DNA from: Chloroflexota bacterium
Lineage (GTDB): Bacteria; Chloroflexota; UBA6077; JACCZL01
Assembly: GCA_030447245.1 (NCBI GenBank)
Contig: JAUJPG010000022.1
Coordinates: 21,885 to 85,884 of the forward strand
Direction: 5' to 3'
DNA length: 64,000 bases
Shown: in pieces, positions 8,187 to 28,085 of the stretch
Position numbering within the stretch: the first letter of the stretch is position 1
How the letters are laid out: the number at the start of each line of letters is the position of its first letter
The notes under the pieces: generated by a model
Seen by the model: the letters and a program-made list of their open reading frames with translations, nothing else
What the model was told of the DNA's origin: nothing
Databases searched by the model: none
Program-made: the position numbers and the translations under genes

Positions 8187-8234
8187 GGCGACCCTGAGGA
8201 CGCTCAACGACTGCTCGATGGGGCGGCTCAGCAG

Positions 8235-8450
8235 ATGATGGACGCCGTCCACCGCTGCGAGAGCACCGTCAGCCGCATGCTGGACGACGGCATCTTGGCC
8301 CTGTTCGGCGCCCCAATCGCCCATGAGGACCACGCCCTCCGAGCCTGCTACGCCGCCGCATGTCGTTCGGGCGCCAGCGCCGAGCAGGGCGACCTGGAGT
8401 GCCGCCTGGCGCCGCTGCTTGGCGAGCAGCCGCGGACGAGTGGGCGATAG
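8235..8450 (+). pseudogene. adenylate/guanylate cyclase catalytic-domain fragment
   Basis: DGILALFGAPIAHEDHALRACYAAA is the class III cyclase core motif; only about 70 aa remain. Confidence 0.45.
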
Positions 8451-10282: not shown

Positions 10283-10416
10283 ACCGACGGCACGGTACCG
10301 CGGTATCTCCCGCCCGGCGGGGTTCGCGCGGCTTGCCGCACGCCTGTCCCGAACGGGGAGGGCCGCCAGCCGTGCGCATCGGGGATGTGGTATAGCCTGG
10401 CAAGGAGGTGTCCGGG

Positions 10417-11052
10417 ATGCAGGCGGATGAGTTGAAGGGGCGCGGTGTGCTGGCGCTATCCAACGCCGAGAAGATCGGGCAGGTGGAGGACGTGCTGTTC
10501 GACGCGCAGTTCCGCCAGGTGCTGGGGTTCCGTGTGAAGCGGGGCGGCCTGTTCGGCAAGGCGCAGGCGCTCCTGCGCGACAGCGTGACCTCCATCGGTA
10601 CCGCCGCCTTGACGGTGCAGAGCCCGGATGCGGTCAACGACGAGGAGCGCTTCGCCGATCTGGCCCACGTGTCCACGTTGAGCCAGGTGGAGCGGACCCA
10701 GGTGGTCACCGAGAGCGGCGAGGTGCTGGGGACGATCGCGCACCTGGAGATCGACGACGACGCGCGCAAGGTCACGGCGTATGTGCTGTCGTCCTCGTTC
10801 AGGGACCGGGTGCTGGGCCATGACACCGAGTCGGTCAAGGCTGACGAGGTGCTCCGCCTGGGCGAGGGCGGGGTCATGGTGGTGCCGCACGCGGTCGCGG
10901 TGCGGCTCAAGCCGAGCGCGGATAGGCGCCGCGTCCGGGCACCCGCGGGTCCGGGACGGCGCCGCGATGGGCCTGACCCGGTGGCCGAGGACGCAGGGCT
11001 CGTCGACGTGGACGCTCGCGGAGAGCTCCCCGGACCGGGGCGCGGGTGGTGA
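10417..11052 (+). CDS. PRC-barrel domain protein (two PRC barrels)
   Basis: Two repeats of a PRC-barrel-like pattern (LKGRGVLALSNAEKIGQVEDVLFD... and VVTESGEVLGTIAHLEIDDDARKVTAYVL); the C-terminal tail is uncertain. Confidence 0.6.
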   Translation: MQADELKGRGVLALSNAEKIGQVEDVLFDAQFRQVLGFRVKRGGLFGKAQALLRDSVTSIGTAALTVQSPDAVNDEERFADLAHVSTLSQVERTQVVTESGEVLGTIAHLEIDDDARKVTAYVLSSSFRDRVLGHDTESVKADEVLRLGEGGVMVVPHAVAVRLKPSADRRRVRAPAGPGRRRDGPDPVAEDAGLVDVDARGELPGPGRGW

Positions 11053-11055
11053 TGA

Positions 11056-11221
11056 GAGATCGAGCTGGCGGTCGTCATCGGGCAGGAGGCCAGGGAGTCA
11101 CCCGCGAGCGGGCGGTGGCGCCCGTGGCCGGGTACACGATCTTCCACGACGTGAGCGCGCGGGATCTCGAGTTCGCGCCTGGCGGCGGGGTCATCGTGGG
11201 CAAGAACTTCGAGCAATTCTG
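11056..11221 (+). pseudogene. internal fragment of a fumarylacetoacetate-hydrolase (FAH) family gene, frameshifted
   Basis: EIELAVVIGQEAR then, after a frame switch, VTRERAVAPVAGYTIFHDVSARDLEFAPGGGVIVGKNFE; this is about 80% similar to residues of the intact FAH gene at 24296..25192 and abuts IS630 copy 1. Confidence 0.5.
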
Positions 11222-11275
11222 GTACTGCTCCGTTATAGTGCCCGGGCAGGCTGTGGAAATTCATTGAGCACCCTA

Positions 11276-12720
<1,445 letters not shown>

Positions 12721-12892: not shown

Positions 12893-14067
12893 GCTACCGC
12901 CCATTGCCGCTGCCCAGGTCCTGACGCTCGTCGCGCTCCTACTCCTCGGCGACCGCCCGCGCGCCATCGACGCGCGAGCACCGGCCGAGCGTGACCCGGC
13001 CGAGCGCGGGCTCGCCGGTCCCGGATGACCCCGAATACCTTTCCTGGGCACAGCCCGGCCCCTTTCGGGCGCCGTTCCTGACCGACTTTCCCGTCCAGAG
13101 CTTCGCCGCCGATCAGCGCATCGTCGCCACGTACTTCTTCTACTGGTACGACGCGGCGACCTATCGGGCCAGCCAGGCCACCCGCGGCTTCGACCCGTAC
13201 CCGTTCCACCCGCCGAACCTCGCCACGATCAGCTTCCGCGACACCGATTGGTACGAGCATGAGTTCCGCGACATGCTCGCGGCCGGGTTGACGTGGTGCT
13301 GCCGGACTACTGGGGCGAGCCCGGGCCAGTACCATCGGCGGGTGGCCCCCGCCCCCGAGCTGAACTACTTTGCCACCGAGGGCATCCCTCCGATGGTCGA
13401 GGCGCTCGAACGGCTCGCCGACGCCGGTACGCCGCTCAAGATCGGCCTGTTCCTCGATACGACGATCCTGAACGACGAGGATCTGACGACCGAGCGCGGC
13501 AAGCAGATCTTTTACGCCTCGATCCGCGACTACTATTCGCGGATCCCTCCGCGCCACTGGGCGGCCATTGGCGGCGGCCGATCGTCTGGCTGTACGACGC
13601 GCAGCGGGTCTACCGCTTCGACCAGTCGACGTTCGACGCGGTGACCGCCTGGTTTCCGCGGGACTTCGGTGGCCTGGCACCGTTCATCATCCGCGAGGCG
13701 CAATGGGCGCGCCAAGAACGTCGACCACGACGAGCTGATCCACGCTGATGGCCTCTACGCCTGGGGCGCGGCACCCTTCGGGTTCGCCGAGGACCCGCGC
13801 GTCACCATCGCCCAGGTTGGCCCGGGGTTCTCGAGCGTCCAATTCGGCCGGCCGAACGGCATCTTCACAGACCGGCAGGATGGCCGCTACTACGAGGATC
13901 AGCTGCGCAAGGCGCTGGCGAGCGGCCGCCAGATCATGGCCGTCGAGACCTGGAACGAGCTGGGCGAGGCCAGCGGCATCCTCGAAACGGTCGAGTACGG
14001 CCGCCAGTACATCGACCTGACCCGGCGCTACGCCGAGCGCTTCAAGGCTGGCCTTGGGCCTCCGTGA
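12893..14067 (+). pseudogene. secreted glycoside-hydrolase-like protein (GH99-like/DUF5010-like, tentative) with at least three frameshifts
   Basis: Signal peptide MLPPIAAAQVLTLVALLLLG (frame 2), then ...YFFYWYDAATYRASQ...DWYEHEFRDMLAAGL (frame 1), ...VVLPDYWGEPG... (frame 0), ...FIIREAQWA...ETWNELGEASGILETVEYGRQYIDLTRRYAERFKAG (frame 1). The family call is tentative. Confidence 0.45.
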
Positions 14068-14087: not shown

Positions 14088-15968
14088 TCAGGCGCCACTC
14101 ACCTCGATGCTGTTCCAGCCGGACGCGCCGTTCGGCTGGGCCAGGCTGAACATCTCGGTCTGGAGCGTCCCCTGCCCGTCGGTCGCTCGCGCCACGAGCT
14201 TGACGGTGGCGCCGGTCGGTAGGTCGAAGCTGCCTTCCCAGCGCACCCAGGCATCCACGCCGGGCTGCGGCTCCAGAAACGTCGCCGGTGTCCAGCTCGC
14301 GCCGCCATCGGCACTGAACTCGACCCGCGAGATGCCGCGGTTAGACGCGTAGGCAATCCCAGCGATCTGCTGTGGCCCGGCCGGCAGGGTCGCGGCTGGG
14401 GCCGGCACGTCGATCCGGGTCATCGTCTTGACGATCCCGTCGCGGCTCCAGTTACGCTGCCCGTACCAGTCCACTACCGGGCGGACGGATGGACGGATCA
14501 CTCGGATCCACTTCGGGCTCTTGTAGCCGTACCGGCCCGGCACCAGGACGCGCGCCGGGTAGCCGTGCTCGTAGGGGAGCACGGTCCCGTTCATCTCGTA
14601 GGCGACGATCGTGTTCGGGTCGAGCGCGGCCTCAGGCGGGACCGCGCTGACGAACTCGTCCTCGCCGATCATCGCGACCGCGACGACGCCGGGCTTCAAG
14701 CCGCGGGCCAGCTCGAGCAGGTCTACCAGGCGGACTCCCTTCCAGCTGGCCGTGCCGATCAGCTCGCAGCCAAAGGGCACCAGCTCGCACCTGTCAGTCA
14801 AGTTGCTGACGCATTCGAGCGTCTTGGCGATCTCGACGGTCGGCAACTGACGCAAGGTCGCGTAGTCGAGCTGGACCGGGTTGTTCACCTCGCCGTCCAG
14901 CGCCAGGCTCCACTCCTCGGGCTTGATGACCGGATCGGCGATCGGGTTCTTGGTGACGTGGTAATGGTTCTCGGTCGGAGTGATCAACGACGAGAGGGTG
15001 CCGGGCTGGCGGGCGCCGGCGGTCAGCGAGCCGTCCTGGTCCCGCGAGAGCTGCTTGGCGAGGGTTTGCGGCGTGGGGAGATTGGGCTCTGGTGTCGGCG
15101 AGGAGGCGGGCGCCACGGCCGGCGCGGCAGTGGCCGGCTCGGACGTTGGCGTCGCAGCTGCCGCGGGAGCGGCGACCACGGCGGAGGCCGCGGTCGGGGC
15201 GGGACCAACGGCCCCGGTGGCCGCGGGTGATGGCTCGGCGAGTGGGCGCGGGGTGAGCTGGACGCGGGCGAGCGATCCGCTTGCCGCGCCACTACGCTGG
15301 CCGAGCCAGAGTGTGGCGGCGAACGCGGCGGCTGCCGACCCGAGTGAGACGAGGGCCGCGCGACGTGAGGCCGAGCCAGCCGCTGCCGGGCCCGTCGATC
15401 TCGCGACCGCCGAGGCTGCTGGCTGGCTCGTGGCTCTGGTCAGGGTCGAGCGCGCCGCGAGCCATTGGCCGAGTACGAGCAGCCCAGCGTAGCTCAGCGC
15501 GACACCAGCGTAGCCGGCGTTGACGAGCCGCCAGTCCTGGAGCAGGTCCACGGCGAACGGTCCCGCACCGGTCAACGGCATGATCCCGCCCAGCGCCACC
15601 AGGTAGAGGATCGGCGCGACCGCCAGCAGCGCCCAGGGCGAACGAACGTACCGAACCAGCGCGGCGCCGAGACCGAGCAGGATGATCGTCATCCCGGCCA
15701 CGGCGACGTAGAGCGCGTACACCTTGGCGTCGGCGCCGAACCGCGAGAGACCCTGCTCGACTGTGTCCGGCGAGATGAAGATCAGCACCCACTCCATCAC
15801 CCGCTCGGGTAGGGTTCGGATCTGATAGGCGGACCGCAGCCAGAACATCGCGGCCAGTGCGCCTGCCGTTGCCAACGCGGCAATCGCCGTGCATGCTGGC
15901 CAGCGCGGGCGCTCGCTCGTCGGCGGTCGTTCGTTTCTCGGCTGTCTCATGATCAGGGCTCTCACCAT
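14088..15968 (-). CDS. sulfite-oxidase-family molybdopterin oxidoreductase with N-terminal polytopic membrane domain
   Basis: About 250-aa N-terminal hydrophobic domain, an Ala/Pro-rich linker, then a Mo-domain with the conserved Cys context (LECVSNL), WKGVRLVDLL, and a dimerisation-domain-like C-terminus; paralog of 51355..53064. Confidence 0.75.
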   Translation of the reverse strand: MVRALIMRQPRNERPPTSERPRWPACTAIAALATAGALAAMFWLRSAYQIRTLPERVMEWVLIFISPDTVEQGLSRFGADAKVYALYVAVAGMTIILLGLGAALVRYVRSPWALLAVAPILYLVALGGIMPLTGAGPFAVDLLQDWRLVNAGYAGVALSYAGLLVLGQWLAARSTLTRATSQPAASAVARSTGPAAAGSASRRAALVSLGSAAAAFAATLWLGQRSGAASGSLARVQLTPRPLAEPSPAATGAVGPAPTAASAVVAAPAAAATPTSEPATAAPAVAPASSPTPEPNLPTPQTLAKQLSRDQDGSLTAGARQPGTLSSLITPTENHYHVTKNPIADPVIKPEEWSLALDGEVNNPVQLDYATLRQLPTVEIAKTLECVSNLTDRCELVPFGCELIGTASWKGVRLVDLLELARGLKPGVVAVAMIGEDEFVSAVPPEAALDPNTIVAYEMNGTVLPYEHGYPARVLVPGRYGYKSPKWIRVIRPSVRPVVDWYGQRNWSRDGIVKTMTRIDVPAPAATLPAGPQQIAGIAYASNRGISRVEFSADGGASWTPATFLEPQPGVDAWVRWEGSFDLPTGATVKLVARATDGQGTLQTEMFSLAQPNGASGWNSIEVSGA

Positions 15969-16187
15969 CGCGCGTTCACCACCAGGTGCCAAGACTGTAC
16001 CGCCGCCAGGCTGCGTGGCAAGGACAATTCTTACGATTGCCTGACGACGTATCCAGCGGCCCACCAGCAGTGCGAGCGCCGTTACGACCGATCGTGCGAG
16101 CCCGCCTGGCGCGGATCACGTCGAGCCGGCGCCAGCCGCTCGAAGAACATCGTGACACCCCGTTCTTCGATCCAGTCAGGTGCCCGA

Positions 16188-19100
16188 TCACTCCGCGCGC
16201 TCGGGTGACCCGGTCGGCAGCCGAGCGGCGGCCGCGCCGGCCGGCTCGACCGTCACCTCAAAGCTCGCAGCTCGAACGGTCAGGCGCACGCTGCCGTCGC
16301 TGAAGCTCCAGCGCTCGTCTGCTCGCCCGTCGACCACGACGCGCGCCGGTGGCGCGTCAGCCGGCAGGACGACCTGGTAGCCGCGCTCAACCGGCGCGTC
16401 GGCAACAGTCAGCGTGATCTCGCCGCCCTGGACCCGCGTGCCGAACGTCGTCCCGTCGTACAGCCGCTGGCGAGCGGCCGGCAGGGTCTCCGCTTCGCCA
16501 GGCGGGGCGACGACCTGCACGATCAGGTCGCCGTTCCAGACGGTGCCTCGGCCGTCCGCTGTCGGGACAAGCGTGTCGAAGTCGGGCGCGAGTGGCAGGA
16601 TCGCGCCGGCCCTGGCAAACAGCGGAATCCGGTCGAGCGGTGCATCGGCGGTAACGACCTGCCCACCCTGCAAGGCCCGGCCGGTCCACCAATCGACCCA
16701 GGTGCCGGCCGGCAGGTAGACGGTTCGAAGCCGGGCCCCCTCCTCGAGCACTGGGGCGACGAGCAGATCGTCGCCCAGGGCGTAGGCATCCTCGACCGCC
16801 CACGCGCGAGGGTCGTTTGGGGCGATCAGTGCGAGGTGCCGCACGATCGGCAGCCCGGTCTCCGAGGCGACCTTCGCCTGGGTGTAGAGGTAGGGTACCA
16901 GGCTGTTGTGGAGGCGGGCGTAGCGGCGGAACTCGGCCACCGTCTCCTGGTCCGACCAGACCTCGACCGGATCGCCCTGGTGGTCGCCGTAGTTGTCGCG
17001 CAGCACGGGGCTGAGCGCGCCGAGCTGGAGCCAGCGCCGCCAGAGCTCGCGCTCCGACGCTCGGGGCAGACCGACGCCGGCGTAGCCGCCGACCTCCGGG
17101 TGCCAGTAGGGAAAGCCGCTCAGGCCGAGCGAGAGCGCTGCCGGCAGCAGCCCGCGAATTCCCTCCTGGTTCCAGCTAATCGTCTGGTCACCGGACCACT
17201 GGAGGCTCTGGTACGCCCGCGCGCCGAGGCTGGCCGAGCGGGCAAACAGGACCACGTCGTCGCCGCGAACGGCGCGCGCCGCCTCGAACGATGCTTTGGC
17301 GTAGAGCGTCAGATAGCGATTGTGCGTCTCGATGCCGCTAGTCCCGTCGGCGTAGCGCGCGTCTTCCGGCACCAGCTCGCCCAGGTCAAGCATCGCGCCG
17401 TCAAGGCCGAGCACGTCGAGGATCCGGCGCCAGAGCCCGCCCCACCAGTCCACGGCGGCCGGATTGGTGAAGTCGACCCAGCCGACTTTGTGGTGGGGAT
17501 GAAGGTAGGCATGGCCGCCAGCGTCCTGGACGAGCAACTCTGGCGGGACTCTGGCGGCTGGGGGCACATCGGGGTTCTTGTAACCGAGCACCTTGAAGCC
17601 GAGGGCGTGGACGCGGTCCGTCAACTGGCGCGGGCTCCGGTACGGGCCAGTGGTCCGGTTGCCGAAGCTGACCCACGGCCAGCCGAGCAGTGACTGCTCG
17701 TCGGTCAGGTCGTAGACGAACAGCGCCGAGACCGGCAGCGCTTCGGCCCGGATCCGCTCGGCGTCGCGCAGGACACGCGCCGAGCCACCCACGGCCGTCT
17801 TCCAGACGCCGAACGCCCAGATCGGCGGCAGCGGAGGCCCGTCGACGCCGTCAAAGCGGACCCGGTCCTGGAGGATGTCGCGAGGACTCGGGCCGGCGAT
17901 GACCAGCAGGCTGGCCGCCGGCTGCTCGACCTGCCAGGCGACCCGGTCCGCCCGCTCGGCGGCGACGTCGAACGTGCCGCGCGCGTCACTCTCGACGAGC
18001 AGGCCATACCCGCGGCTCGAGACGTACCAGGGGATCGGCGCGTAGGTGGCCGCGCCGAACCCGACGTAGCGCCGGTCCTCCGCCCAGGTCCGAACGACCC
18101 GGCCGCGCTGGTCGACCGCGTCGAACCGCTCGCCGAAACCGAGGAAGCGCTCACCGGTCTCAGCCACGACGGCCCCGCCGACGCGGGCCACCGATGGCGG
18201 ATCGTCCGGCGTGACGCGGAGCCGCACCGCGCGCGGCCCGAGAGCGGCCAGCTCGACCAGGACGGTCCGCCCGGCCGGGTCATCGGTCGCGGCGACCAGC
18301 CGGAGAGCGCCGTCGGTCGGGCTGGCGTCGATCAGCCGGGTGAGTCGCCAACGACCGCCGCTCCGGTCGACGTAGCCGAACGAGCCGAACACGCCATCGA
18401 CGGCGGGGGCCTCCTGCCAGAGCACCCGCCCTCGGGCGTCGAGCAGCGTAAGCCGCCACGGATCGCGCTCGACCCGCGCGGTCAGCTCACCGAGCGGCGC
18501 GACGACGGCGCCGGCCTCGGGCGCGGCTGGGTCCGCTTGAGAGGCGTCAGCCAGGCCGTCGCGTGTGACATCGGCATCGTCCGCGGCGCCGGCGTTGGGC
18601 CCGAGCCCGGGGCTGGTCGCCGAGTGCTCGGTCGCCACGCTCGTTTTCAGCGACTGCGCGACTGGTACCGGACCGGCCGTCGTCGCCGGCTCCGGGGCTG
18701 GCGTGTGCTCCGGGGCTGGCGGCGGGTCGAGAGGCGCGTCGGCCTCCCAGCCGACGACCTCGTGGGCAGTCAGCCTCGCCACGTCCAGTCGGATCGTTTC
18801 ACCCGGGCGCCAGCGCTCCGGCGGGTACCACCAGAGGACCGGCAGGTTGTCGAACGTCTGCCGGGTGCCGTCACGGAAGCGGACCTCGATCGACGGTCGA
18901 GGCCGTTCCGGCACGGCCCGGCGAACGCGCCAAAGCGTTTCTAGCGTCGCGAGCGGACCGCGCGGACCGATCTCGCTGCTCGGGACGAGCCGGGCCGAGA
19001 GCATCTCGATGGCGCCGTCGTGGAAGCTCGCGGCCGGTGGCCCGACCGGGGCTGGCCCGTTCGAGACCGGCCCGGACCGCGCAAAGTCGTAGAAGCGGTC

Positions 19101-20738
19101 GGGCAACGGTTGTTCGGCGGCCAGGCCGCGCTTGAGCAGGACCAGGCCATCCTCGGCCGCCTGCAGGCGGTACTCCCCGCGGGTCAACAGCTCCTGGAGT
19201 CGCTTGTGCATGCTGCCAGGACCGGCCGGGTAGGGGCTGCCCCCGACGTCGACAAGGACGTACTCGGCATCATGTACGGTTGGGAACAAGTAGGCGCCGG
19301 CCCGCTGGCTCAGGTGTGGGTAGAGCGCCGTGGATGCCGAGACCGAGGCGTGCTGCGGGATGCTCGCCGCGAGCTGACGCCCGAGCTCGTCGTGAGGGGA
19401 GACCGTCGGGGTTGGCAGGCCGGCGACCAGCGGTCCGATCCCCGCCTGGCGGTAGGCGATGGCTCCGCCGAGGACGGCGGCGACCGACAGCACGGCGACG
19501 ACCCGCGAGAACGGCCAGTCGCCCCAGCGGCCGCCGAGTGTTGCGAGCCGGCCGGCGCCAACGATCGCGGCGGCGATCACGAGCGGCAGCACCGTCGCCG
19601 AGTAGTGGGCGCGCCCGGCCGCCATCCACGGCGAGCTAGAGAAGACGTTCAGCGCGAGGATCGGCGCCACCGCCAACAGCAGCTCGGGGGCGAGCAGGCC
19701 GAGCCAGCCTCCGCAGAGCAGCAGGGTGGCGAGATACCCCAGCACCTCCGGCCGGCCAAGCGTGGTCAGGTAGACCGCTGGATCCTCGACCAGGGTCCGG
19801 AGCGCCGCGCCAGGGCTGCCGCCGATCGGGGCGTAGCGCGCCGTGAACGGCGAGATCGCGCCGCCCGAGTAGTGTGGAATGATGACCGCGACGCAGAGGA
19901 TCGACCAGCCGGCGCCAAGGACGACCGCCGCCGTCGCGGCCCACCGCATCGCGCGCACGCCCCCCGGGGAGCCGAGCGTTGCCGGGGCGTGGACAACCGG
20001 GGCGAGCCAGGCGAGCGAGCGGGCCACGGCTGCCGGGACCGGCGCCAACCCGAGCAGCGCGACAAGGCCGAGCCCGGCGACGATCAGCCCGACCTCCTCC
20101 TTCGTCGCGGCGGCGAGCAGACCCGCTACGAGAAAGAGGCGCGGCTGTCCGGCGTCGAGCGCGTCGACGGCCAGCAGGAGCAGCGGGGCGGCCAGCGCGA
20201 CGCTGTGGAAGTCGGCCGTCGCGGCCCACTGTCCCGGTGGCGCCAGCAGGTACAGGCCGGCAAAGGCGAGGCCGGCCTGAGGGTGGCCGAGACGGCGCCG
20301 GGCCAGGCGGTAGGCGGGGATGGCGCCGAGGGCGATCGCGATCGCCTGGAGCCAGAGGATCGCCCGGACGTCGGGCACGACGAGGTAGAGCGGCGCGAGC
20401 AAGACCAGGATCGGCTCGACGTGGAACGCCAGCAGGGAGTCTGGCCGCCGGATCGCCGCCAGATCGATGTCGGTCTCGAACTCGGCGTGCTGGTAGGTGG
20501 TGAAGCGGAACGCCTGGCCGCGCAAGAAGTTCCAGATGACCTGGTCGGTAAAGCCGAGGTCTTCCGCGTTCGTTTCGAGCGCCTGGTGCCGCTCGACCGC
20601 GCGCCAGCCCAATCCCAGCCCGGCGACGAGTGTCAGCGCCGCCAGCGCGGCGAGGACGGCCAGCCGTCGCCGGTCAGCGATGGCGCCGATGCGCAGGCCG
20701 ACCGGGAGCCTGGCGACAGCGGCGCTCGTCAGTGCCAC
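16188..20738 (-). CDS. fusion protein: DUF2079-like polytopic membrane domain plus glycoside hydrolase family 31 domain (1516 aa)
   Basis: N-terminal about 650 aa with many hydrophobic segments and DUF2079-like blocks (FHVEPILVLLAPLY, ATKEEVGL). A Pro/Ala linker (PAPEHTPAPEPATTAGP) precedes a C-terminal GH31 signature (SLQWSGDQTISWN, GFKVLGYKNP, RYARLHNSLVPYLY). Confidence 0.75.
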   Translation of the reverse strand: MALTSAAVARLPVGLRIGAIADRRRLAVLAALAALTLVAGLGLGWRAVERHQALETNAEDLGFTDQVIWNFLRGQAFRFTTYQHAEFETDIDLAAIRRPDSLLAFHVEPILVLLAPLYLVVPDVRAILWLQAIAIALGAIPAYRLARRRLGHPQAGLAFAGLYLLAPPGQWAATADFHSVALAAPLLLLAVDALDAGQPRLFLVAGLLAAATKEEVGLIVAGLGLVALLGLAPVPAAVARSLAWLAPVVHAPATLGSPGGVRAMRWAATAAVVLGAGWSILCVAVIIPHYSGGAISPFTARYAPIGGSPGAALRTLVEDPAVYLTTLGRPEVLGYLATLLLCGGWLGLLAPELLLAVAPILALNVFSSSPWMAAGRAHYSATVLPLVIAAAIVGAGRLATLGGRWGDWPFSRVVAVLSVAAVLGGAIAYRQAGIGPLVAGLPTPTVSPHDELGRQLAASIPQHASVSASTALYPHLSQRAGAYLFPTVHDAEYVLVDVGGSPYPAGPGSMHKRLQELLTRGEYRLQAAEDGLVLLKRGLAAEQPLPDRFYDFARSGPVSNGPAPVGPPAASFHDGAIEMLSARLVPSSEIGPRGPLATLETLWRVRRAVPERPRPSIEVRFRDGTRQTFDNLPVLWWYPPERWRPGETIRLDVARLTAHEVVGWEADAPLDPPPAPEHTPAPEPATTAGPVPVAQSLKTSVATEHSATSPGLGPNAGAADDADVTRDGLADASQADPAAPEAGAVVAPLGELTARVERDPWRLTLLDARGRVLWQEAPAVDGVFGSFGYVDRSGGRWRLTRLIDASPTDGALRLVAATDDPAGRTVLVELAALGPRAVRLRVTPDDPPSVARVGGAVVAETGERFLGFGERFDAVDQRGRVVRTWAEDRRYVGFGAATYAPIPWYVSSRGYGLLVESDARGTFDVAAERADRVAWQVEQPAASLLVIAGPSPRDILQDRVRFDGVDGPPLPPIWAFGVWKTAVGGSARVLRDAERIRAEALPVSALFVYDLTDEQSLLGWPWVSFGNRTTGPYRSPRQLTDRVHALGFKVLGYKNPDVPPAARVPPELLVQDAGGHAYLHPHHKVGWVDFTNPAAVDWWGGLWRRILDVLGLDGAMLDLGELVPEDARYADGTSGIETHNRYLTLYAKASFEAARAVRGDDVVLFARSASLGARAYQSLQWSGDQTISWNQEGIRGLLPAALSLGLSGFPYWHPEVGGYAGVGLPRASERELWRRWLQLGALSPVLRDNYGDHQGDPVEVWSDQETVAEFRRYARLHNSLVPYLYTQAKVASETGLPIVRHLALIAPNDPRAWAVEDAYALGDDLLVAPVLEEGARLRTVYLPAGTWVDWWTGRALQGGQVVTADAPLDRIPLFARAGAILPLAPDFDTLVPTADGRGTVWNGDLIVQVVAPPGEAETLPAARQRLYDGTTFGTRVQGGEITLTVADAPVERGYQVVLPADAPPARVVVDGRADERWSFSDGSVRLTVRAASFEVTVEPAGAAAARLPTGSPERAE

Positions 20739-20922
20739 CGAGCGAGCCTCAAGCCGCGTTGGACGTTCATGACTGTAAGGGTATGCGGGGCGACTCGCTT
20801 CGCGCGACGGGGATCCTCGCCCCGTCAGGCGGCCAGGGCCCGATCGGGCGATCAGCCGCGTCGATGACGGCCGCCCGATCGGGCCGGCGTCGCCGCCGAG
20901 TCTACGTCACGTCGGACCACGT

Positions 20923-22130
20923 TCAGGCGCCGCCCGGCCCCTGGCGCGCCGCCTTGGCGAGTACCGGCGCGGCCTCGCGTGGCTCGCCTGGCGTGGCGAT
21001 TCGGTGGACGATCCGCTTCGCCCGGAGGGCCGCTTCGGCAGCCGCGAAGTAGTCGCGCACGTCCCCCTGGGTGGCGATCCAGCGAACGTACTGGCCAATG
21101 CCCTCGGCCAGCTCGACCCGCGGCTCGTAGCCGGCCGTCCGAGCCAGGCTAATATCCGAGGTCAGGTGGCGCATCTCGCCGGGCCGGAACTCCCCGCGCG
21201 CGAGCGGCTCGATCGGCGTCCCGAGCGCCGCGCCTACGAGCTGGCCGATCTCGCGCACGGTGGTCGCCCGGCCGCTCCCGACGTTGACCGGCTGGCCGTC
21301 GAGCACGTCGGTCGTGGCAGCCAGCAGGTTCGCCCGGGCGACGTCCTCGACGAAGCAGAGGTCGCGGGTCTGCGCGCCATCCTCGTAGAGGATCGGCGGC
21401 AAGCCGTTCAGCAGCCGCGTCGCGAAAATCGCGATCACGCCAGTGTACGGGTTGAAGATCGACTGGCGGGGGCCGTAGGTGCAAGAGTAGCGGAGCGCGA
21501 CGGTCGGGATACCGGTCTGGCGGCCCCAGGAGAGCGTCAGCCGCTCCTGGTCAACCTTCGTGAGCGCGTAGACCGTCTCGCCGCCGAGCGGAGCCTGCTC
21601 GGGCGTCGGCACCGACGTGGTGACCGCGTCGCAGCGCGGGCAGTGGACGGCGTAATCGCCGCGCTGGAGCTGGGCTAGTGGCCGCGCCGCCGGGAAGACC
21701 AGCCCGTGCGTCGGACAAGTTCCCGCACCCTCCTGGTAGACGGCCTGCGACGACGCCACGATGACCTTGCGGACCGGCAGGTTCTCGTCGCGGATGATCT
21801 CGAGGAGCTGGGCCGTCCCGAAGCTGTTGACGTGGACGTACTTGGCCATCTCCGGCATGTAGCCGCCGTAGGCCGCCTGGTGGAAGACCACGTCGATGTC
21901 GTCAAGGGCATCGCGCACGGCAGCCCCGTCTCGGATATCGGCCGTGCGAAACTCGGCGGCCTCGGGGATCCAGGCGGCCGCCCGAGCCCGTGGGTCTGTG
22001 GCTCCAGGTTGTCGAGAATCCGGACCGACCATCCGTCGCGGTTGATGAGGTCGGCAAGGTGCGAGGCGATCAGGTCGGCGCAGCCTGTGACGAGCGCGCG
22101 GCGATCGTGGCGAGGGGTGGTCGTGATCAT
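20923..22130 (-). CDS. NAD-dependent epimerase/dehydratase (SDR) with an apparent single frameshift near 21960
   Basis: N-terminus MITTTPRHDRRALVTGCADLIASHLADLINRDGWSVRILDNLEPQTHG (frame A) continues as ...AAAWIPEAAEFRTADIRDGAAVRDALDDIDVVFHQAAYGG...YALTKVDQERL... (frame B); either a real mutation or a sequencing indel. Confidence 0.6.
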
Positions 22131-22329
22131 GTCTGAGACATCCCAGGGTCAGTCGTGAGCGAGATGATTGCCTCGTGCAGAATCAGACGAAATGGTAGGT
22201 TAGGTCGTCCGAAGGGGCACGGCATGCCGTGCCCAACCTGCCGTGCCCCGACCAACGGGAACGCCGGGCATCCGGTCTGATTGTGCATGAGGTCGTAGGG
22301 TGAGGCGTGGGCCGGCAAGTCTATCGTCG

Positions 22330-23139
22330 TCACGATGTGATATCAGCGTACGACGTGGCTCGGTAGGTCCTTCGGGCAGGGACGGTCGACGCCCCGGTCG
22401 GCTCGGCCTGGCCGTTCGGGACGGGTCGGCCGAGCCGCTCGAGCGCGACGCGCGTAACGGGCAGGTCGTCGCGCCCGGCGACGAGCGCTGCCAACCGGTC
22501 GAGATCAGCGACTTCGTCTACGTCGAACGTTGGTGCGACGAACGCGATCGAAAGCCCGAGCCCTTCGGCGTGGGCGACGATCTCGGCCACGACGGTGCGG
22601 GTGCTCATCGCGACGCCATCGAGCACCCGCCAGGGTCCCCGCATGCCGACGAGATAGTAGCCCCCGTCCTCAACCAGGCCGAGCACCAGGTCGTGGCGTT
22701 CGAGCAGGGCGAACGCCTCGGCCACGATCTCCAACGTCAGGTGGGGAGTGTCCGACGCGACCAGGATCGTGCGCGTCTCGCCACGCGCGGCGGCTCCAAG
22801 GAAGAGTGCCTGCTGGCGCTCGCCCCAACTGCCCTCGCCCTGGATCAGCACCGGGCCGGCCGGCGCGAGCGAGCTGAGCAAGTACCCGGCCGACCGCTCA
22901 TCGTGTTGCCCGTTCGGCCGCTCTGATGGGCGGATCAGTGGGCCGATGTCGTCCCAGGCGTCCGCCGGCGTGATGTACCACCCGACGGCAAACGGCGCGG
23001 AAGCAAAGCGCGCCGCCAGGTCCCGCAGAAAGGCGATGTACAACTCGACGGCCCGCTCGTGGCCGATCGCGCGACCGAGGCGGGTCTTGGCGAAACCGGC
23101 CCGGGGCGCGCGGGCCGCGACGTAGAGGACCGCGCTCAT
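22330..23139 (-). CDS. DUF2064 / CofC-like nucleotidyltransferase-fold protein
   Basis: MSAVLYVAARAPRAGFAKTRLGRAIGHERAVELYIAFLRDL...LVGMRG matches DUF2064 (TIGR04282-like) blocks; its ATG overlaps the upstream GT2 stop (ATGA at 23136-23139). Confidence 0.7.
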   Translation of the reverse strand: MSAVLYVAARAPRAGFAKTRLGRAIGHERAVELYIAFLRDLAARFASAPFAVGWYITPADAWDDIGPLIRPSERPNGQHDERSAGYLLSSLAPAGPVLIQGEGSWGERQQALFLGAAARGETRTILVASDTPHLTLEIVAEAFALLERHDLVLGLVEDGGYYLVGMRGPWRVLDGVAMSTRTVVAEIVAHAEGLGLSIAFVAPTFDVDEVADLDRLAALVAGRDDLPVTRVALERLGRPVPNGQAEPTGASTVPARRTYRATSYADITS

Positions 23140-23897
23140 CGCGGGCCGCCCGGCGCGCGGGGCGCGGCGCTGGCGGCTGGGGACCAGTGCCAGTAGCGGA
23201 ACGTCGTTGCCAGGATGCTCCAGCCGGCTCGGACGCTCCCGCTGACCGTTCCTGCGACCTTCGAGATGCCGATCCGCGCGTGGTAGGTCACCGGAACCTC
23301 CTGGTAGCGGAGGCCGGCTCGCGCCGTCTTGACCATCATCTCGACCGACCAGCCGTAGGTCATCTCGCGCATGTTCAACGCGAGCAGGTCCGCGCGGCGG
23401 ATTGCTCGAAACGGGCCGAGGTCGGTGACCGCGACGCCGTAGAGGGCGCGCATGATCGTGGCGGCGAGCCGGTTGCCGAACACCTGATGCGGGCTCATCG
23501 AGCCGGGATCGCGCGCCCCGAGCGCACGCGAGCCAACCACCAGATCGGCCCGGCCAGCGAGCAGCGGCGCGAGGACGCGCGGCAGATCGTCCGGGTCGTC
23601 GGCGGCATCGCCGTCGAGCAGGACGATCACCTCGGCGTCGCTGGCAGCAAGCACGCCGGCCCGACAGGCGTAGCCGTACCCGCGTCGTGGCTCGACGACG
23701 ACGGTCGCGCCGGCCTCGCGCGCGATGGCCGCGGTGTCGTCGCTCGACCCGTTGTCGACGACGACGATGCTCGCGAGGGGAACGGCGGTCTGGCGACGAA
23801 GCCCGCGCACGACCTGACCGATCGACGGCGCCTCGTTGAGCGCCGGAATGACCGCCGCAATGCATGGCCCGCCCGCCTGCTCCCTGGCCGACACCAT
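23136..23897 (-). CDS. glycosyltransferase family 2 (partner of DUF2064)
   Basis: CIAAVIPALNEAPSIGQVVRGLRRQ...SIVVVDNGSSDDTAAIA...VLLDGDAADDP has the GT-A fold motifs (DxD-like DGD). Confidence 0.7.
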   Translation of the reverse strand: MVSAREQAGGPCIAAVIPALNEAPSIGQVVRGLRRQTAVPLASIVVVDNGSSDDTAAIAREAGATVVVEPRRGYGYACRAGVLAASDAEVIVLLDGDAADDPDDLPRVLAPLLAGRADLVVGSRALGARDPGSMSPHQVFGNRLAATIMRALYGVAVTDLGPFRAIRRADLLALNMREMTYGWSVEMMVKTARAGLRYQEVPVTYHARIGISKVAGTVSGSVRAGWSILATTFRYWHWSPAASAAPRAPGGPR

Positions 23898-24161
23898 CGC
23901 CTCGGGGCCTCTGGCACGCTCGTCAATCCTCAAGTCACCTCCAGCGCCCGTTCACCGCGGTGCCGCGATCGGGGACTGGCAAACCGCGTCATTGGTCGTG
24001 CCCTGGCCTCGCTCTGCCCGAACCCGCTCTGATGGTAGCAGTCAGTTCTTGCGAAATCCTTACTGACACCGTTGCAATCTCAAGAGTCCGGCTGATGGCC
24101 ACTTCACGTAGCAGTCCTTTCGTCGTCGACCCATCGCCAGCCTCTTCGAAGACGGTCTATC

Positions 24162-24205
24162 GCGCGTTGACCATAACAGTCAACGCGCGTTGACCATAAT
24201 GGCTA
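24162..24205. promoter_or_regulatory. candidate operator upstream of the FAH gene: direct repeat CGCGCGTTGACCATAA x2 spanning a perfect palindrome TCAACGCGCGTTGA
   Basis: cgcgcgttgaccataacagtcaacgcgcgttgaccataatgg lies about 90 bp upstream of the FAH start codon, in an intergenic region between divergently transcribed genes. Confidence 0.4.
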
Positions 24206-24295
24206 CCATCACGGCAAGTGACCCGCAAGCTGATAGGCATGGTCTCGGCAGCACGGCCCAGGCAGATGACGGGCGATGTCTCCCAGGAGGTTCCG

Positions 24296-25192
24296 ATGCG
24301 CTTAGTGACCTTCCTCGCCTCCGACCAGCCTCGTCTCGGCGCATTGCTCGACGACTCCGTGCTCGACTTGAACCGCGCGGACGCCACGCTTCCGACCGAT
24401 GCTCTGGCGCTGCTCCAGGGCGGTCCATCTCTACTGGACCGGGCGCGGCGTGCCCTGGGGAGCGCGATCTCAAAGCGCAGCGCCGTGGTGCCGCTGGCCG
24501 AGGTGAAACTGCTCGCACCGATTCCGCGACCACCCAAGATCATCTGCATCGGCTTGAACTACGCCGACCACGCGGAGGAGGCGGGGCTGGCGATCCCCGC
24601 TCGGCCGAGCGTGTTCCTGAAGGCTCCTTCCACAGTGATTGGTCCGGGCGAGCCGATTGTCCGCCCGACGACCACCGAGCAGCTCGACTACGAGATCGAG
24701 CTCGCGGTCGTGATCGGACAGCAGGCGAAGGCGGTGGCACGCGAGCGCGCGATGGACTGCGTGGCCGGGTACACGATCCTGCATGACGTGAGCGCCCGTG
24801 ATCTCCAATTCGCGAAGGATGGCGGCATCATCCTGGGCAAGAACTTCGACACGGCATCTCCCATCGGACCGTACCTCGTGCTGACTGACGAGCTGCGCGA
24901 TCCGACCACTCTGGGCCTCAGAACCTGGGTCAACGGGCAGCTTCGCCAGGATGGGAACACGCGCAATCTCATCTTTGACATTCCGGGCATCATCAGCTTC
25001 CTGAGCCAGCAGCTCACGCTCGAGCCCGGCGACGTGATCGCAACCGGCACGCCCGCGGGTGTTGGTTTGGGGATTATGCCGCAATCGTGGCTGCAGCCCG
25101 GGGACAGCGTGCGGATGGAGATCGACGGGCTGGGGGTGCTGGAGAACCCGGTGGTCGGCAGCTCATCCGTAAGAGCCGCGAGCGCGGGGTAA
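24296..25192 (+). CDS. fumarylacetoacetate hydrolase (FAH) family protein
   Basis: KIICIGLNYADHAEEAG...YEIELAVVIGQQAK...GYTILHDVSARDLQF...GKNFDTASPIGP...GDVIATGTP matches conserved FAH-family blocks; start taken at MRLVTF. Confidence 0.8.
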   Translation: MRLVTFLASDQPRLGALLDDSVLDLNRADATLPTDALALLQGGPSLLDRARRALGSAISKRSAVVPLAEVKLLAPIPRPPKIICIGLNYADHAEEAGLAIPARPSVFLKAPSTVIGPGEPIVRPTTTEQLDYEIELAVVIGQQAKAVARERAMDCVAGYTILHDVSARDLQFAKDGGIILGKNFDTASPIGPYLVLTDELRDPTTLGLRTWVNGQLRQDGNTRNLIFDIPGIISFLSQQLTLEPGDVIATGTPAGVGLGIMPQSWLQPGDSVRMEIDGLGVLENPVVGSSSVRAASAG

Positions 25193-25235: not shown

Positions 25236-26887
25236 TTAGGATCCCGCGCGGTGCTGGCGGTAGCGGCGGATCAGCATGTTGGTGGAGCTGTCGTGGGCGA
25301 GCGGCGGGTCGGCTGCGGCCTGGAGCTCCGGGGTGATCTCGAGGGCGAGCGCCTTGCCGAGCTCGACGCCCCATTGATCGAAGGCGTTGATCTGCCAGAT
25401 GGCGGCCTGGACGAACACCTTGTGCTCGTACAGGGCGACGAGCTTGCCGAGCGTCTCCGGGGTCATGCGCTCGGCGAGCAGCGTGTTGGTGGGACGGTTG
25501 CCGTCGAAGGCACGGTGGGGGATCAGCGGATCTGAGACGCCTTCGGCCGCGAGCTCCTGGGCGGTCTTGCCGAAGGCGAGCGCCTCGGTCTGGGCGAAGA
25601 GGTTCGCCATCAAGAGGTCGTGGTGGGGCGCGAGGGGATTGAGCGACTGGCAGAAGCCGATGAAGTCGCAGGGGACCAGGCGGGTGCCCTGGTGGATGAG
25701 CTGGTAGAAGGCGTGCTGGCCGTTGGTCCCGGGCTGACCCCAGACGATCGGGCCGGTGTCGTAGCTGACCGCGCGGCCCTGGAGGTTGACGTGCTTGCCG
25801 TTGCTCTCCATGTCGAGCTGCTGGAGGTAGGCCGGCAGGCGGCCGAGGTACTGGTCGTAGGGCAGGACGGCAACGGTCTCGGCGCCGAAGAAGTTCGTGT
25901 ACCAGAGGCCGATCAGGCCGAGGAGGACCGGCAGGTTACGGGCGAACGGGGTCGTTCGGAAATGCGCGTCCATGGCGTGGAAGCCGGCGAGCATCTGGCG
26001 GAAGTGATCGGGCCCAATGGCCAGCATGAGTGACATGCCGATCGCCGAGGGCAGCGAGTAGCGGCCGCCAACCCAGTCCCAGAAGGGAAACATGTTGGCC
26101 GGATCGATGCCGAACCGCGCGACGTCCGCCGCGTTGGTCGAGACGGCGACGAAGTGCCTGGCGACGGCCTGCTCGTCGCCCAGGGCACGGAGGCACCAGT
26201 CGCGGGCGGTGCGCGCATTGGTGAGGGTTTCGAGGGTGGTAAACGTCTTCGACGAGACGACGAAGAGCGTCTCGGCAGGGTCGAGGTCGCGGGTGGCTTC
26301 AGCAAAGTCGGTCCCGTCGACGTTGGAGACGAAGCGGAAGGTCAGATCGCGGTCGCTGTACCCTCGCAGCGCCTCGTAAGCCATCGCCGGGCCGAGGTCC
26401 GAGCCGCCTATACCGATGTTGACCACGTTGCGGATGCGCCGGCCGGTCTGGCCGCGCCAGGCCCCGCTCCGAACGCGGTTGGTGAAGTCGGCCATGCGAT
26501 CCAGGACCGCGTGGACGAGCGGGACAACGTCCTGGCCGTCTACGACGATTGACTGGCCGCGGGGTGCGCGGAGGGCGACGTGAAGAACGGCGCGGCCCTC
26601 GGTCAGGTTGATCGGCTCGCCGCGGAACATGGCGTCGACGCGGGCGCGGAGGCCCGATTCTTCGGCGAGCTGGAGGAGCAGCCCGATCGTCGCATCGGTC
26701 AGACGGTTCTTGGAATAGTCGAGATAGAGGCCAATTGCCTCGAGTGCCAGGCGCTCACCCCGTTCGGGATCCTGGGCGAAGAGCGTCCGCAGATGGACAG
26801 ACCGGATCTCGCGGTGGTGCGCCTGGAGGGCGGTCCAGGCGGGGCGTTCGGTGAGCGGGATCGGCGGGTTGGGCATCTGGGCGGCCA
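25236..26887 (-). CDS. pgi: glucose-6-phosphate isomerase
   Basis: About 550 aa with PGI signatures ([61 protein letters not shown]); the ORF-track N-terminal extension to 27644 is spurious. Confidence 0.9.
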
Positions 26888-27021
26888 TGCTGGTGTCCTC
26901 CTGTAGAACGGGGCACTGGGTGATGCTGCCACACTCGGGCGGCACGCGGCGTCCAGGGCTCCGGGGGCGGCGCGGCGATCGACCGGGAGAATGTGAAGGC
27001 GCCACCCGCGCCCTGTAGTTA

Positions 27022-28085
27022 GCCAGCAAGAATGTCCGCTTGGTGCGCCAGCAAGAATGTCCGCCCGTGCACCGATGGTTCTCGGTGTCTTGCGCGCCGA
27101 TCTGTCGCGCCAGGTCCGTCGATTGGTGCGCGGCTGGAGGGTCGGCGGGGAGGCGGGGGCGTTGGGCTATCAGCGCGTCGGCGCCGAATCGGACCGGAGG
27201 TGCGGGCGGCGGCGCGGGCGGGGCGCACCCGCGCTGGAGCGCGCAAGCGATCTGGGAAGAGCTGGAGGCGGTTGCGCTGGTCGCGAGCGCTGGGCCCGTG
27301 GCAGGCGGCCCCGGGGACGCCCCGGTCGCGGCGGCGCGGCGGTTGCCGCGGGGACGATGGCTGCCCCCAGTGGCTCGCAGGCCGTCGGATGGCCTACGTG
27401 ATCGTGCTGCTGGACGACTACTCGCGGGCGATCCTGGCCGCCCCGGGCGATCACGGCCGACTCGAGCTGGCAGAACCTGCGGGTGCTGGAGCAAGGCGTG
27501 GGGCGGTACGGGCCGCCGCGGGTGCTGTACAGCGACAATATCTTCCGGCGCTCGATCTTCGTCTATCGTGCCGATGGCGGCACGAACTGGCGCGCGCGCT
27601 CGGCGAGGCGGTTTCGCCACACCCCGGCAACGCCCGCGCCGCAAGCTGGGCCTGGGCTTCTTCCAAGAGCGTGCTCGCCGACGGGCCTACCCGGGTGGCG
27701 CTCAACGCCCTGATGCCTGGCCATCGCCCGCCATCGACGGACGGCTGCGTCGGCGGCACGCCCTCATGCTCTGCCACGTCGGCGACGTGTGCGCCCTGTC
27801 GCAAGGTCGCCGACCACACCATCTCGCTCGACGGCGAATCGATCGCCCGCGGCCAAGCCTGGTCGCCTCGGGACGGTTGGGCCGCCTGGGACCGTCGCCG
27901 AGGCAACAACGCGCGCGCCGCAGCGTCCGACCTGCTGGCATCCTGCCCCAGCTGGAGCCCAAGCACCGTGCCGCGGGCGGGCGAGCGGGCTCGCGGCCGC
28001 CGCCCAGGTGGGCCCGTCCAGCGACGCCCGACGTAAGGCTGCCCCTCGACATTCTACCTGGCGTAAGAATGCGGACATTCCTGGT
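27022..28085 (+). mobile_element. degenerate IS (integrase-core type) remnant, copy A, bounded by inverted subterminal repeats AAGAATGTCCGC / GCGGACATTC
   Basis: Two direct copies of GCCAGCAAGAATGTCCGC at 27022-27064 are mirrored by inverted copies at 28047-28085. Inside are rve-domain fragments ([27 protein letters not shown], then frame-shifted [13 protein letters not shown]); no intact ORF. Confidence 0.45.

Follow-up and report, generated by a model that had tools for sequence, protein, structure and literature searches.

A predicted GT-C glycosyltransferase of the DUF2079 family fused to a GH31 glycosidase in a putative envelope glycosylation locus of Chloroflexota

In a stretch of 64,000 nucleotides from a Chloroflexota bacterium (GenBank assembly GCA_030447245.1, contig JAUJPG010000022.1, positions 21,885 to 85,884 of the forward strand; hereafter the window) we have analyzed a gene for a protein of 1516 amino acids that joins a polytopic membrane domain of the DUF2079 family to a complete glycosidase of family GH31. 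We favor, with moderate confidence, the view that this is a bifunctional envelope enzyme, in which the membrane half would carry out extracytoplasmic glycosylation of the Gtr/Arn type and the GH31 alpha-glycosidase would be tethered outside the membrane, preferably as a trimming enzyme. L-numbers designate related loci and P-numbers protein clusters, and both are used as labels throughout. The regions of the fusion protein and the three genes upstream of it are the following, in window coordinates.

19434..20738, minus strand: fusion residues 1-435, DUF2079 polytopic membrane domain with a predicted GT-C fold (Pfam, AlphaFold, Foldseek); the D60 codon is at 20559-20561
18738..19433, minus strand: fusion residues 436-667, predicted soluble alpha/beta and beta-sandwich domain after the last transmembrane helix (AlphaFold)
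18504..18737, minus strand: fusion residues 668-745, disordered linker of 78 residues, rich in Ala, Pro and Thr (model confidence, composition)
16188..18503, minus strand: fusion residues 746-1516 and stop codon, complete GH31 enzyme (Pfam, PDB sequence matches, AlphaFold, Foldseek)
20923..22130, minus strand: homologue of SDR nucleotide-sugar 4-epimerases, frameshifted near 21985, probable pseudogene (Pfam Epimerase, E 7.4e-32, on 20923..22032 only)
22330..23139, minus strand: DUF2064/CofC-like protein with a nucleotide-diphospho-sugar-transferase fold, 269 residues (Pfam DUF2064, E 6.6e-20)
23136..23897, minus strand: GT2 glycosyltransferase, 253 residues (Pfam Glycos_transf_2, E 6.3e-25)

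The open reading frame 16188..20738 starts with GTG on the minus strand and runs through 1516 codons in a single frame with zero internal stops. The G+C content of the window is about 70%, and that of third codon positions (GC3) lies between 0.83 and 0.93 in each block of 150 codons, the linker included. A preliminary description of this DNA had proposed the 1516-residue fusion from the letters of the sequence, and both halves are now supported by significant Pfam matches; in particular, no internal stop was found that would split off the N-terminal half as a separate gene. DUF2079 (PF09852) covers residues 50-534 along its entire profile (1-459 of 459) with an E-value of 1.2e-59 and 203 bits against a cut-off of 28.2, and the other two models named in that description matched significantly as well, Gal_mutarotas_2 (PF13802), the N-terminal domain of GH31, on residues 743-924 (E 1.7e-14, 54.9 bits) and the GH31 TIM barrel (PF01055) on residues 968-1287 (E 8.8e-46, 157 bits against a cut-off of 23.5). 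The C-terminal GH31 domain (PF21365) follows on residues 1295-1381 (E 4.7e-27, 94.7 bits). The predicted Pro/Ala/Thr linker is likewise found between the halves, in residues 668-745, with 24% Ala, 18% Pro and 9% Thr, and with its pLDDT values of 30-55 it is disordered in both AlphaFold half-models. The domain preceding it, residues 436-667, is modeled with regular secondary structure at pLDDT values above 90; it aligns with unfused DUF2079 proteins, homologues of 620-700 residues, and gave tblastn matches in L001-L010.

The AlphaFold model of residues 1-720, based on 99 homologues, reached a pLDDT of 88.7 and a pTM of 0.88. As evidenced by a Foldseek search against the PDB, the predicted fold is that of a GT-C glycosyltransferase: 13 matches were obtained at E<=1e-3, all of them GT-C enzymes with a probability of 1.00 each, including STT3 of the oligosaccharyltransferase, PglB, ArnT, the C-mannosyltransferase DPY19 and AftA, and the GT-C-derived PIG-U comes next. 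Note that the TM-scores to these structures are low (0.30-0.49), as expected of distant GT-C members, and that the model places DUF2079 as such a distant family. Transporter folds (MprF, LeuT, MFS) gave E-values above 0.1 and TM-scores of about 0.1. When PDB sequences were searched with a DUF2079 profile, the only match, to a mannosyltransferase, was not significant (E 0.6), and no relative at the level of sequence has a solved structure. The Pfam model PMT_2 scored 20.8 bits on residues 123-246 only, against a cut-off of 26.1, so that the threshold for a protein O-mannosyltransferase is not reached.

The residues E59, D60, G62, H106, E108, H178, E214, R301, Y302, H378 and Y379 are invariant in 52 close homologues, 13 of them fused and 39 unfused. 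In the wider alignment of 99 sequences D60, G62, H178, E214 and Y379 are still invariant, and H106, E108, R301, Y302 and H378 reach at least 90% conservation, a level from which only E59 of the residues named is excepted. The motif AEDLGFTDQ, which holds D60 and G62, opens the first helix after transmembrane helix 1 (residues 23-52), with E59 and D60 at the start of helix 58-71 in the predicted first outer loop. In GT-C enzymes such as ArnT, PglB and PMT, the catalytic acidic residue is located just after the first transmembrane helix. Lysine and arginine residues, averaged over the 99 homologues, cluster in the N-terminus and in the loops 144-152, 196-198, 235-262 and 398-412, and the loops between these are acidic or neutral. 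This charge bias, together with the helix pattern, fits a domain of 11 transmembrane helices with the N-terminus inside and the C-terminus outside, a predicted topology that puts the invariant polar residues all on the outer side. Two marks of the GT-C superfamily, the membrane fold and the conserved acidic residues in the first extracytoplasmic loop, are thus present in the model, which identifies the DUF2079 half as a putative GT-C glycosyltransferase. The preliminary description had suggested coupled export and trimming, or transglycosylation, of a surface glycan. As all 13 structural matches are GT-C enzymes and an invariant acidic pair is predicted in the first outer loop, the membrane half does not appear to be an export device; that part of the suggestion fails, and the remainder is recast as extracytoplasmic glycosyl transfer combined with the processing of alpha-glycosides. 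Other architectures of DUF2079 are seen in P0015, P0016, P0018 and P0023, where the domain is fused to PF03706, an MprF-type flippase-like family, or to DUF3048 (PF11258 and PF17479).

The AlphaFold model of residues 700-1516 has a pLDDT of 92.6 and comprises an N-terminal beta-sandwich, a TIM barrel and two C-terminal beta-sandwiches, with Foldseek TM-scores of 0.7-0.8 to GH31 structures. The best structural matches are the cycloalternan-forming enzyme Lmo2446 (CAFE), YicI, the dextranase FjDex31A, the transglucosylase Agd31B and sulfoquinovosidases, and in sequence the PDB entries 5f7c, Lmo2446/CAFE, YicI and YihQ match with E-values of 1e-62 to 1e-68. Glucosidase II is more distant, at 1e-20 to 1e-23 versus 1e-68 for the YicI/CAFE group. 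Against the YihQ and YicI sequences of the E. coli K-12 genome, the nucleophile D1118 (codon 17385-17387) aligns with D405 of YihQ and D416 of YicI, and the acid/base residue D1184 (codon 17187-17189) with D472 and D482, respectively; D1184 belongs to the WSGD motif on which the earlier assignment of a GH31 catalytic domain had been based, an assignment that proved correct. Both aspartates are invariant in 69 aligned sequences. With all three GH31 domain models matched and the catalytic pair at the canonical positions, family membership suggests a retaining alpha-glycosidase or transglycosidase.

The substrate of the GH31 half is less easily read. The YicI-type pocket residues W345, K414 and F515 correspond to Y1053, M1116 and Y1219, and in these positions the fusion follows YihQ; in the GH31 tree the domain also lies nearer to the YihQ branch, in a Chloroflexota clade of its own that has its own insertion after strand beta-3. 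The YicI model PRK10658 gave a score of 293 against a cut-off of 606, and with it and the YihQ-like pocket residues we rejected an alpha-xylosidase, the function implied by the automated JGI name alpha-xyloside xylohydrolase. A role in sulfoquinovose metabolism was suggested by the YihQ-like GH31 scores, the SDR gene and the sulfite-oxidase-family neighbor described below. The YihQ model PRK10426, however, scored 321 against a cut-off of 553. Of the residues R301, W304 and Y508 (E. coli numbering), which bind the sulfonate in YihQ, the latter two are matched by W1020 and Y1219, but the position of R301 is Leu or Asn in the fusion clade in the larger alignment. A smaller alignment sets R1028 opposite R301, in a loop where the alignment is ambiguous. 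We consequently discarded the sulfoquinovosidase. The wider sulfoquinovose role was rejected because the better alignment shows no conserved sulfonate-binding Arg, because the SDR protein matches UDP-GlcNAc and UDP-Glc 4-epimerases, and because UDP-sulfoquinovose synthase SQD1 was absent from the 60 best PDB matches. The conserved substrate-binding histidine, H540 in YicI, is Asn in the window protein and varies among N, H, A, T and Q across the fused proteins, whereas it is mostly His in standalone relatives; the sugar specificity of the GH31 half is probably unusual.

The closest standalone GH31 relatives, 46-51% identical, begin with twin-arginine signal peptides (SRRAFL, TRRELL, TRRAFL, TRRALL). 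Since these relatives start with signals for twin-arginine translocation (Tat), the GH31 clade should act outside the cytoplasm, in agreement with the predicted outward C-terminus of the membrane half. In L002 (region 7851-12349) and on the P0159 contig, a gene encoding a protein with a PatA_N domain comes directly before such a standalone GH31 gene; the L002 copy of this protein has a single membrane helix, and the L002 pair sits in a locus that further contains genes for a Tad pilus and for GT2 enzymes as well as a Wzx-type flippase.

The calls of a GT2 and a DUF2064 gene upstream of the fusion, and of the ATGA start/stop overlap that couples DUF2064 translationally to GT2, are sustained by Pfam and by the sequence. 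The best NCBIfam models of the GT2 protein are AglJ (TIGR04182), the haloarchaeal dolichyl-phosphate hexose transferase (NF041391) and the mycobacterial polyprenyl-phospho-GalNAc synthase PpgS (NF058614), all three below their equivalog cut-offs with 137 against 325, 89 against 375 and 62 against 370; in the PDB it is closest to GpgS, an enzyme for soluble acceptors, and then to ArnC. From these similarities it probably works like the polyprenyl-phosphate sugar synthases but belongs to none of the three groups, and its most fitting role is to supply the GT-C enzyme with a polyprenyl-phosphate sugar as donor, rather than to synthesize a polymer. The DUF2064 protein scored 120 bits with TIGR04282, against a cut-off of 134, and matched PDB entry 3cgx with an E-value of 7.9e-13; a literature search on DUF2064 found nothing relevant. 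TIGR04282 is one of a pair of arsenosugar models, the other of which, TIGR04283, reached 44 in the window against a cut-off of 182. An arsenosugar cluster with ArsS was rejected on these scores and because the radical SAM proteins of related loci are of the SPASM type and close to metalloenzyme maturases, the ArsS model being absent among their 25 best NCBIfam matches.

The third gene, placed at 22130..20923 in the preliminary description, is an epimerase homologue as stated there, but its 1208 nucleotides are not a multiple of three and do not form a single open reading frame. Its first 48 or so codons are in the frame of 22130 and the remaining 369 in that of 20923..22032, whereas L006 and L008 have orthologues that stay collinear within a single frame. 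The NAD-binding (Rossmann) motif reads GCADLIA, as opposed to GGVGLIG in L008 and GAGLIG in L006, and the window copy is probably an inactive pseudogene, to judge from frame and motif. The intact orthologue, L008:3064-4206, best matches the UDP-GlcNAc/UDP-Glc 4-epimerases 6dnt, 6wjb, WbgU and WbpP. Note that the epimerase looks broken while the flanking GT2 and DUF2064 genes and the 4.5-kb fusion gene are intact.

That the upstream genes are true functional companions, as had been supposed, is borne out by their recurrence. According to tblastn searches and gene tables, GT2 and DUF2064 recur around DUF2079, whether fused or not, in at least eight related loci with varying gene order: GT2 orthologues lie beside it in L001, L004, L006, L007, L010 and the P0033 and P0009 contigs, and DUF2064 is kept in L001, L003, L004, L006, L008 and the same two contigs. 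The third cassette gene encodes the epimerase in some loci and a radical SAM/SPASM protein in others; the latter takes the place between DUF2064 and the fusion in L001 (8541-9566), L004 (4998-6044) and the P0009 contig. The best NCBIfam model of the SPASM protein is a tungsten-cofactor oxidoreductase maturase, below cut-off, and it could serve in sugar modification or in the maturation of a neighboring molybdoenzyme.

The distribution of the fused architecture, a point the preliminary description had marked for checking, turned out to be narrow, with about 15 clusters from Chloroflexota metagenomes. A search of 5.8 billion protein clusters retrieved 13 in which a full-length protein combines DUF2079 with the three GH31 domains, the window protein included, and two further truncated ones; they are drawn from NCBI, JGI and ENA data, and all named ones are metagenome-assembled genomes (MAGs) of Chloroflexota. 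Among 185,579 species, each represented by one genome, the fusion was found only in a handful of Chloroflexota/Chloroflexia MAGs, namely L003, L004, L005, L006 and L007 together with L008, and the relatives of the window protein are all from MAGs of these taxa. In an exhaustive HMMER search the DUF2079 half retrieved 7251 representatives of 50% identity clusters at E<=1e-3, and only two of the best 150 of these matches carry GH31. A tblastn search of plasmids gave GH31 matches only and no fusion. As the same architecture recurs in 12 other full-length and two truncated clusters from three data sources, the fusion is no assembly artifact. Frameshifts break the fusion genes of L006 (8149-11984) and L008 (104-2366) into overlapping open reading frames, pointing to indel errors in these two assemblies.

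Trees of both halves, quick neighbor-joining trees without bootstrap, give the same two fused clades, A with the window protein and P0002-P0007 and B with P0008-P0013. Unfused DUF2079 proteins are nested among the two, and a standalone GH31 clade is the sister of fused clade B. One of the unfused proteins, P0033, has 671 residues, is 69% identical and is encoded on a 265-kb contig in an operon of the order GT2-DUF2064-epimerase-DUF2079, after which the following gene is on the opposite strand and GH31 is missing. As the same operon exists without it, the GH31 module is, on this comparison, an early addition to a conserved set of genes, and one that can be dispensed with.

Two further recurrent neighbors of DUF2079 are present in the window.

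14088..16064, minus strand: molybdoenzyme of the sulfite-oxidase (SUOX) family, start codon uncertain (Pfam Oxidored_molyb, E 6.2e-39)
12985..14067, plus strand: putative secreted DUF5010/GH99-like glycosidase, disrupted (tblastn against L004:13052-14212, minus strand; weak Glyco_hydro_99 match)

The molybdoenzyme has about five N-terminal transmembrane helices, an internal twin-arginine motif before the last of them and a linker of 70-100 residues rich in Pro, Ala, Thr and Ser, a sequence pattern that suggests a membrane protein inserted by both Sec and Tat. The motif is SRRAAL in the window, and ARRAVL and ARRAFI also occur; copies of the gene lie at 15244-17055 in L001 and 10480-12270 in L004. 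Orthologues adjoin DUF2079 in L001, L003, L004, L009, L010 and the P0033 and P0009 contigs, which makes the molybdoenzyme the most constant neighbor of DUF2079, fused or unfused. The DUF5010 gene contains out-of-frame stretches at about 13270-13310 and 13555-13710, both of which return to frame, and an in-frame TGA at 13642-13644. Its intact orthologue, L004:13052-14212 on the minus strand, encodes 386 residues (Pfam E 5.7e-15) directly upstream of the L004 GT2 gene. A flippase gene was not recognizable in the window; the GtrA-like open reading frame 24157..24549 upstream of GT2 was rejected as a candidate, as its product is not hydrophobic and it overlaps a real gene on the opposite strand. 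Scans for promoters, terminators and tRNAs were uninformative. A phosphoglucose isomerase frame at 25236-27644 (minus strand) spans 802 residues with the isomerase domain in residues 309-792 only, and its long N-terminal part is probably an open frame in GC-rich DNA and no true extension. Two genes of the fumarylacetoacetate hydrolase family are present at 7302-8186 and 24200-25192, both on the plus strand, and an HpcH/HpaI aldolase adjoins the fusion gene in L001 and in the P0152 contig, which points to keto-acid metabolism as a recurrent neighbor of the DUF2079 locus.

In the mechanism that we favor, the GT2 enzyme would use a nucleotide sugar to glycosylate polyprenyl phosphate on the inner side of the membrane, with the assistance of DUF2064 and, among relatives, also of the sugar 4-epimerase or the radical SAM enzyme. 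The lipid-linked sugar would then be flipped outward, where the DUF2079 GT-C domain would transfer it to an acceptor in the envelope. Enzymes of the GT2 and GT-C classes are both inverting, and GH31 enzymes act on alpha-linked sugars. Two successive inversions should therefore give an alpha linkage, that is, a product of the substrate class of GH31, and this agreement in stereochemistry offers the best rationale at hand for why the two are fused. On its flexible linker of some 78 residues outside the membrane, the GH31 domain would act on alpha-linked sugars of the same glycan, either trimming it in a process of editing or maturation, which we prefer, or relocating sugars by transglycosylation. 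The fusions of DUF2079 to PF03706 were counted toward the use of a polyprenyl-phosphate donor. A more specific version, to which we give only a small share of the probability, is a single-protein 'write-and-edit' surface enzyme in which DUF2079 installs an alpha-linked sugar that GH31 then removes or relocates, and whose substrate may be the linker of the molybdoenzyme.

The pairs ArnC/ArnT and PpgS/Rv3779 follow a logic of synthase plus GT-C enzyme. Three-component systems consisting of a polyprenyl-phosphate sugar synthase, a flippase and a GT-C enzyme have been described for GtrB/GtrA/GtrC and related proteins, and a small GT2 of this type paired with a GT-C enzyme is characteristic of such extracytoplasmic glycosylation (PMC11127046). 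With these systems, and with the GT136 pentofuranose system (PMC11127046), the window locus has in common a small synthase-like GT2 protein and a polytopic enzyme of predicted GT-C fold. As in the three-component systems, there is an acidic motif in the predicted first outer loop of the GT-C protein and an enzyme that modifies nucleotide sugars in the operon; unlike them, the GT-C protein is a DUF2079 member, a flippase gene is not recognizable and DUF2064 is a constant extra partner. To our knowledge, no three-component system has a glycoside hydrolase fused to its GT-C enzyme. The closest parallel in logic is the N-glycan pathway of the endoplasmic reticulum (ER), in which the dolichyl-phosphate glucose synthase ALG5 (GT2), the GT-C enzymes ALG6, ALG8 and ALG10, whose products are alpha-linked, and the GH31 enzyme glucosidase II are separate proteins that act at different times. 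The same three enzyme classes are found here, and in both cases GH31 would remove an alpha-linked sugar on the non-cytoplasmic side, but the window has GT-C and GH31 in a single protein and its GH31 domain is only distantly related to glucosidase II. With YicI, YihQ and CAFE this domain shares the four-domain fold and the nucleophile and acid/base motifs MLDLGE and WSGD; it differs from them in lacking the sulfonate-binding Arg and the YicI-type residues, in its own beta-3 insertion and in the variable His position, and it differs from known GH31 enzymes in being fused to a polytopic membrane enzyme. Those we know of are otherwise soluble, secreted or single-pass proteins. The mycobacterial GT-C enzymes EmbA, EmbB, EmbC and AftD have large extracytoplasmic C-terminal domains that are non-catalytic binding modules; the order of GT-C core and soluble outer domains is similar, but the module appended here is a complete enzyme with its catalytic pair. 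Neither the PDB matches nor the literature searched contained a fusion of a GT-C protein with a glycoside hydrolase or a GH31 enzyme joined to a polytopic membrane domain.

Several observations weigh against the proposed bifunctional enzyme. The GT2 protein falls far short of all equivalog cut-offs and GpgS, its top match in the PDB, uses a soluble acceptor, no flippase was seen in the window, and DUF2079 is a large family without a characterized member or a solved structure, for which literature searches under DUF2079, PF09852, IPR018650 and COG3463 returned nothing relevant. The predicted topology is derived from charge bias and secondary structure. The relaxed -1 subsite, with Asn in place of H540 of YicI, could mean an altered specificity or a weakened catalysis. 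The epimerase and the DUF5010 glycosidase look broken in this window, so that the system may be partly degenerate. Finally, a transferase and a hydrolase that act on the identical bond would be futile unless their positions or timing differ, and the two halves therefore probably do differ in one or the other.

Among the alternatives, the one that fares best, although we consider it unlikely, is that GH31 acts as a transglycosylase and builds or branches a surface alpha-glycan from the sugars installed by the GT-C domain, in the manner of a primer and a polymerizer. The best structural and some of the best sequence matches of the GH31 half are indeed GH31 transferases, namely CAFE with a Foldseek E-value of 1e-57 and Agd31B, the motif WSGDQT is common to the fusion and Lmo2446/CAFE, and the catalytic pair is intact while the substrate-binding His is relaxed. 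The hydrolases YicI and FjDex31A and the sulfoquinovosidases match about equally well, however, and no sequence rule tells GH31 transferases from hydrolases. Moreover, the 69% identical unfused DUF2079 protein in the same operon without GH31 argues that the latter is not needed for core polymerization.

Less probable again is a reading of DUF2079 as a dedicated protein O-glycosyltransferase for the P/A/T linker of the molybdoenzyme, or perhaps for the linker of the fusion itself, with GH31 trimming the glycan. There are precedents for a GT-C enzyme whose gene lies next to that of its protein substrate, such as TfpW and pilin. The constant proximity of a SUOX-family enzyme with a P/A/T/S linker of 70-100 residues would fit this arrangement, as would the presence of the protein-glycosylating STT3, PglB and DPY19 among the top folds and the weak PMT_2 match. 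Yet ArnT and AftA, with lipid or glycan acceptors, match as well, and the link to the molybdoenzyme is solely one of gene adjacency, seen in this Chloroflexota group of a DUF2079 family with more than 7000 cluster representatives. The metalloenzyme-maturase-like radical SAM/SPASM protein could also explain this linkage without any glycosylation.

It is quite improbable that the membrane half exports or anchors without glycosyl transfer and that GH31 is a surface catabolic alpha-glucosidase or alpha-xylosidase, or a trimmer of an exported polymer. GT-C-fold proteins without transferase activity exist, and PIG-U is among the fold matches; the automated JGI names likewise speak for an alpha-xyloside xylohydrolase. 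Against this, no transporter fold was matched, the invariance of acidic and His residues speaks for a catalytic role, the pocket residues follow YihQ and the YicI model falls short at 293 against 606, and the neighboring genes are biosynthetic rather than devoted to sugar uptake or catabolism. That the long frame is an artifact, two genes joined by an assembly or indel error, is largely refuted, for although the window has indels in two nearby genes and the L006 and L008 fusion genes are frameshifted, the 13 full-length clusters stem from independent assemblies, GC3 is uniformly high through the linker and both half-trees recover the same two fused clades.

Each part of the locus, GT-C, GH31 and GT2, is of a known kind, but their combination has not been described. 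The locus supports the assignment of DUF2079 to the GT-C glycosyltransferases, with a polyprenyl-phosphate sugar synthase as the supplier of its donor, and the fusion may be used in the sense of a Rosetta stone: it predicts that the DUF2079 product carries an alpha-linked sugar recognizable by GH31, and so narrows the search for sugar and acceptor. Should the GH31 domain be only a tethered trimming enzyme, the finding would be a modest extension of systems of the Gtr/Arn type. If, on the other hand, one protein both installs and edits the sugar, it would be a prokaryotic single-protein counterpart of the logic of glucosyltransferase and glucosidase II in the ER, and it would open a first way to the function of a GT-C family that counts more than 7000 cluster representatives. 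Such an architecture is surprising and makes the large, unstudied DUF2079 family accessible to testing, yet it occurs in only a few uncultured Chloroflexota, on whose poorly known cell envelopes it would also bear.

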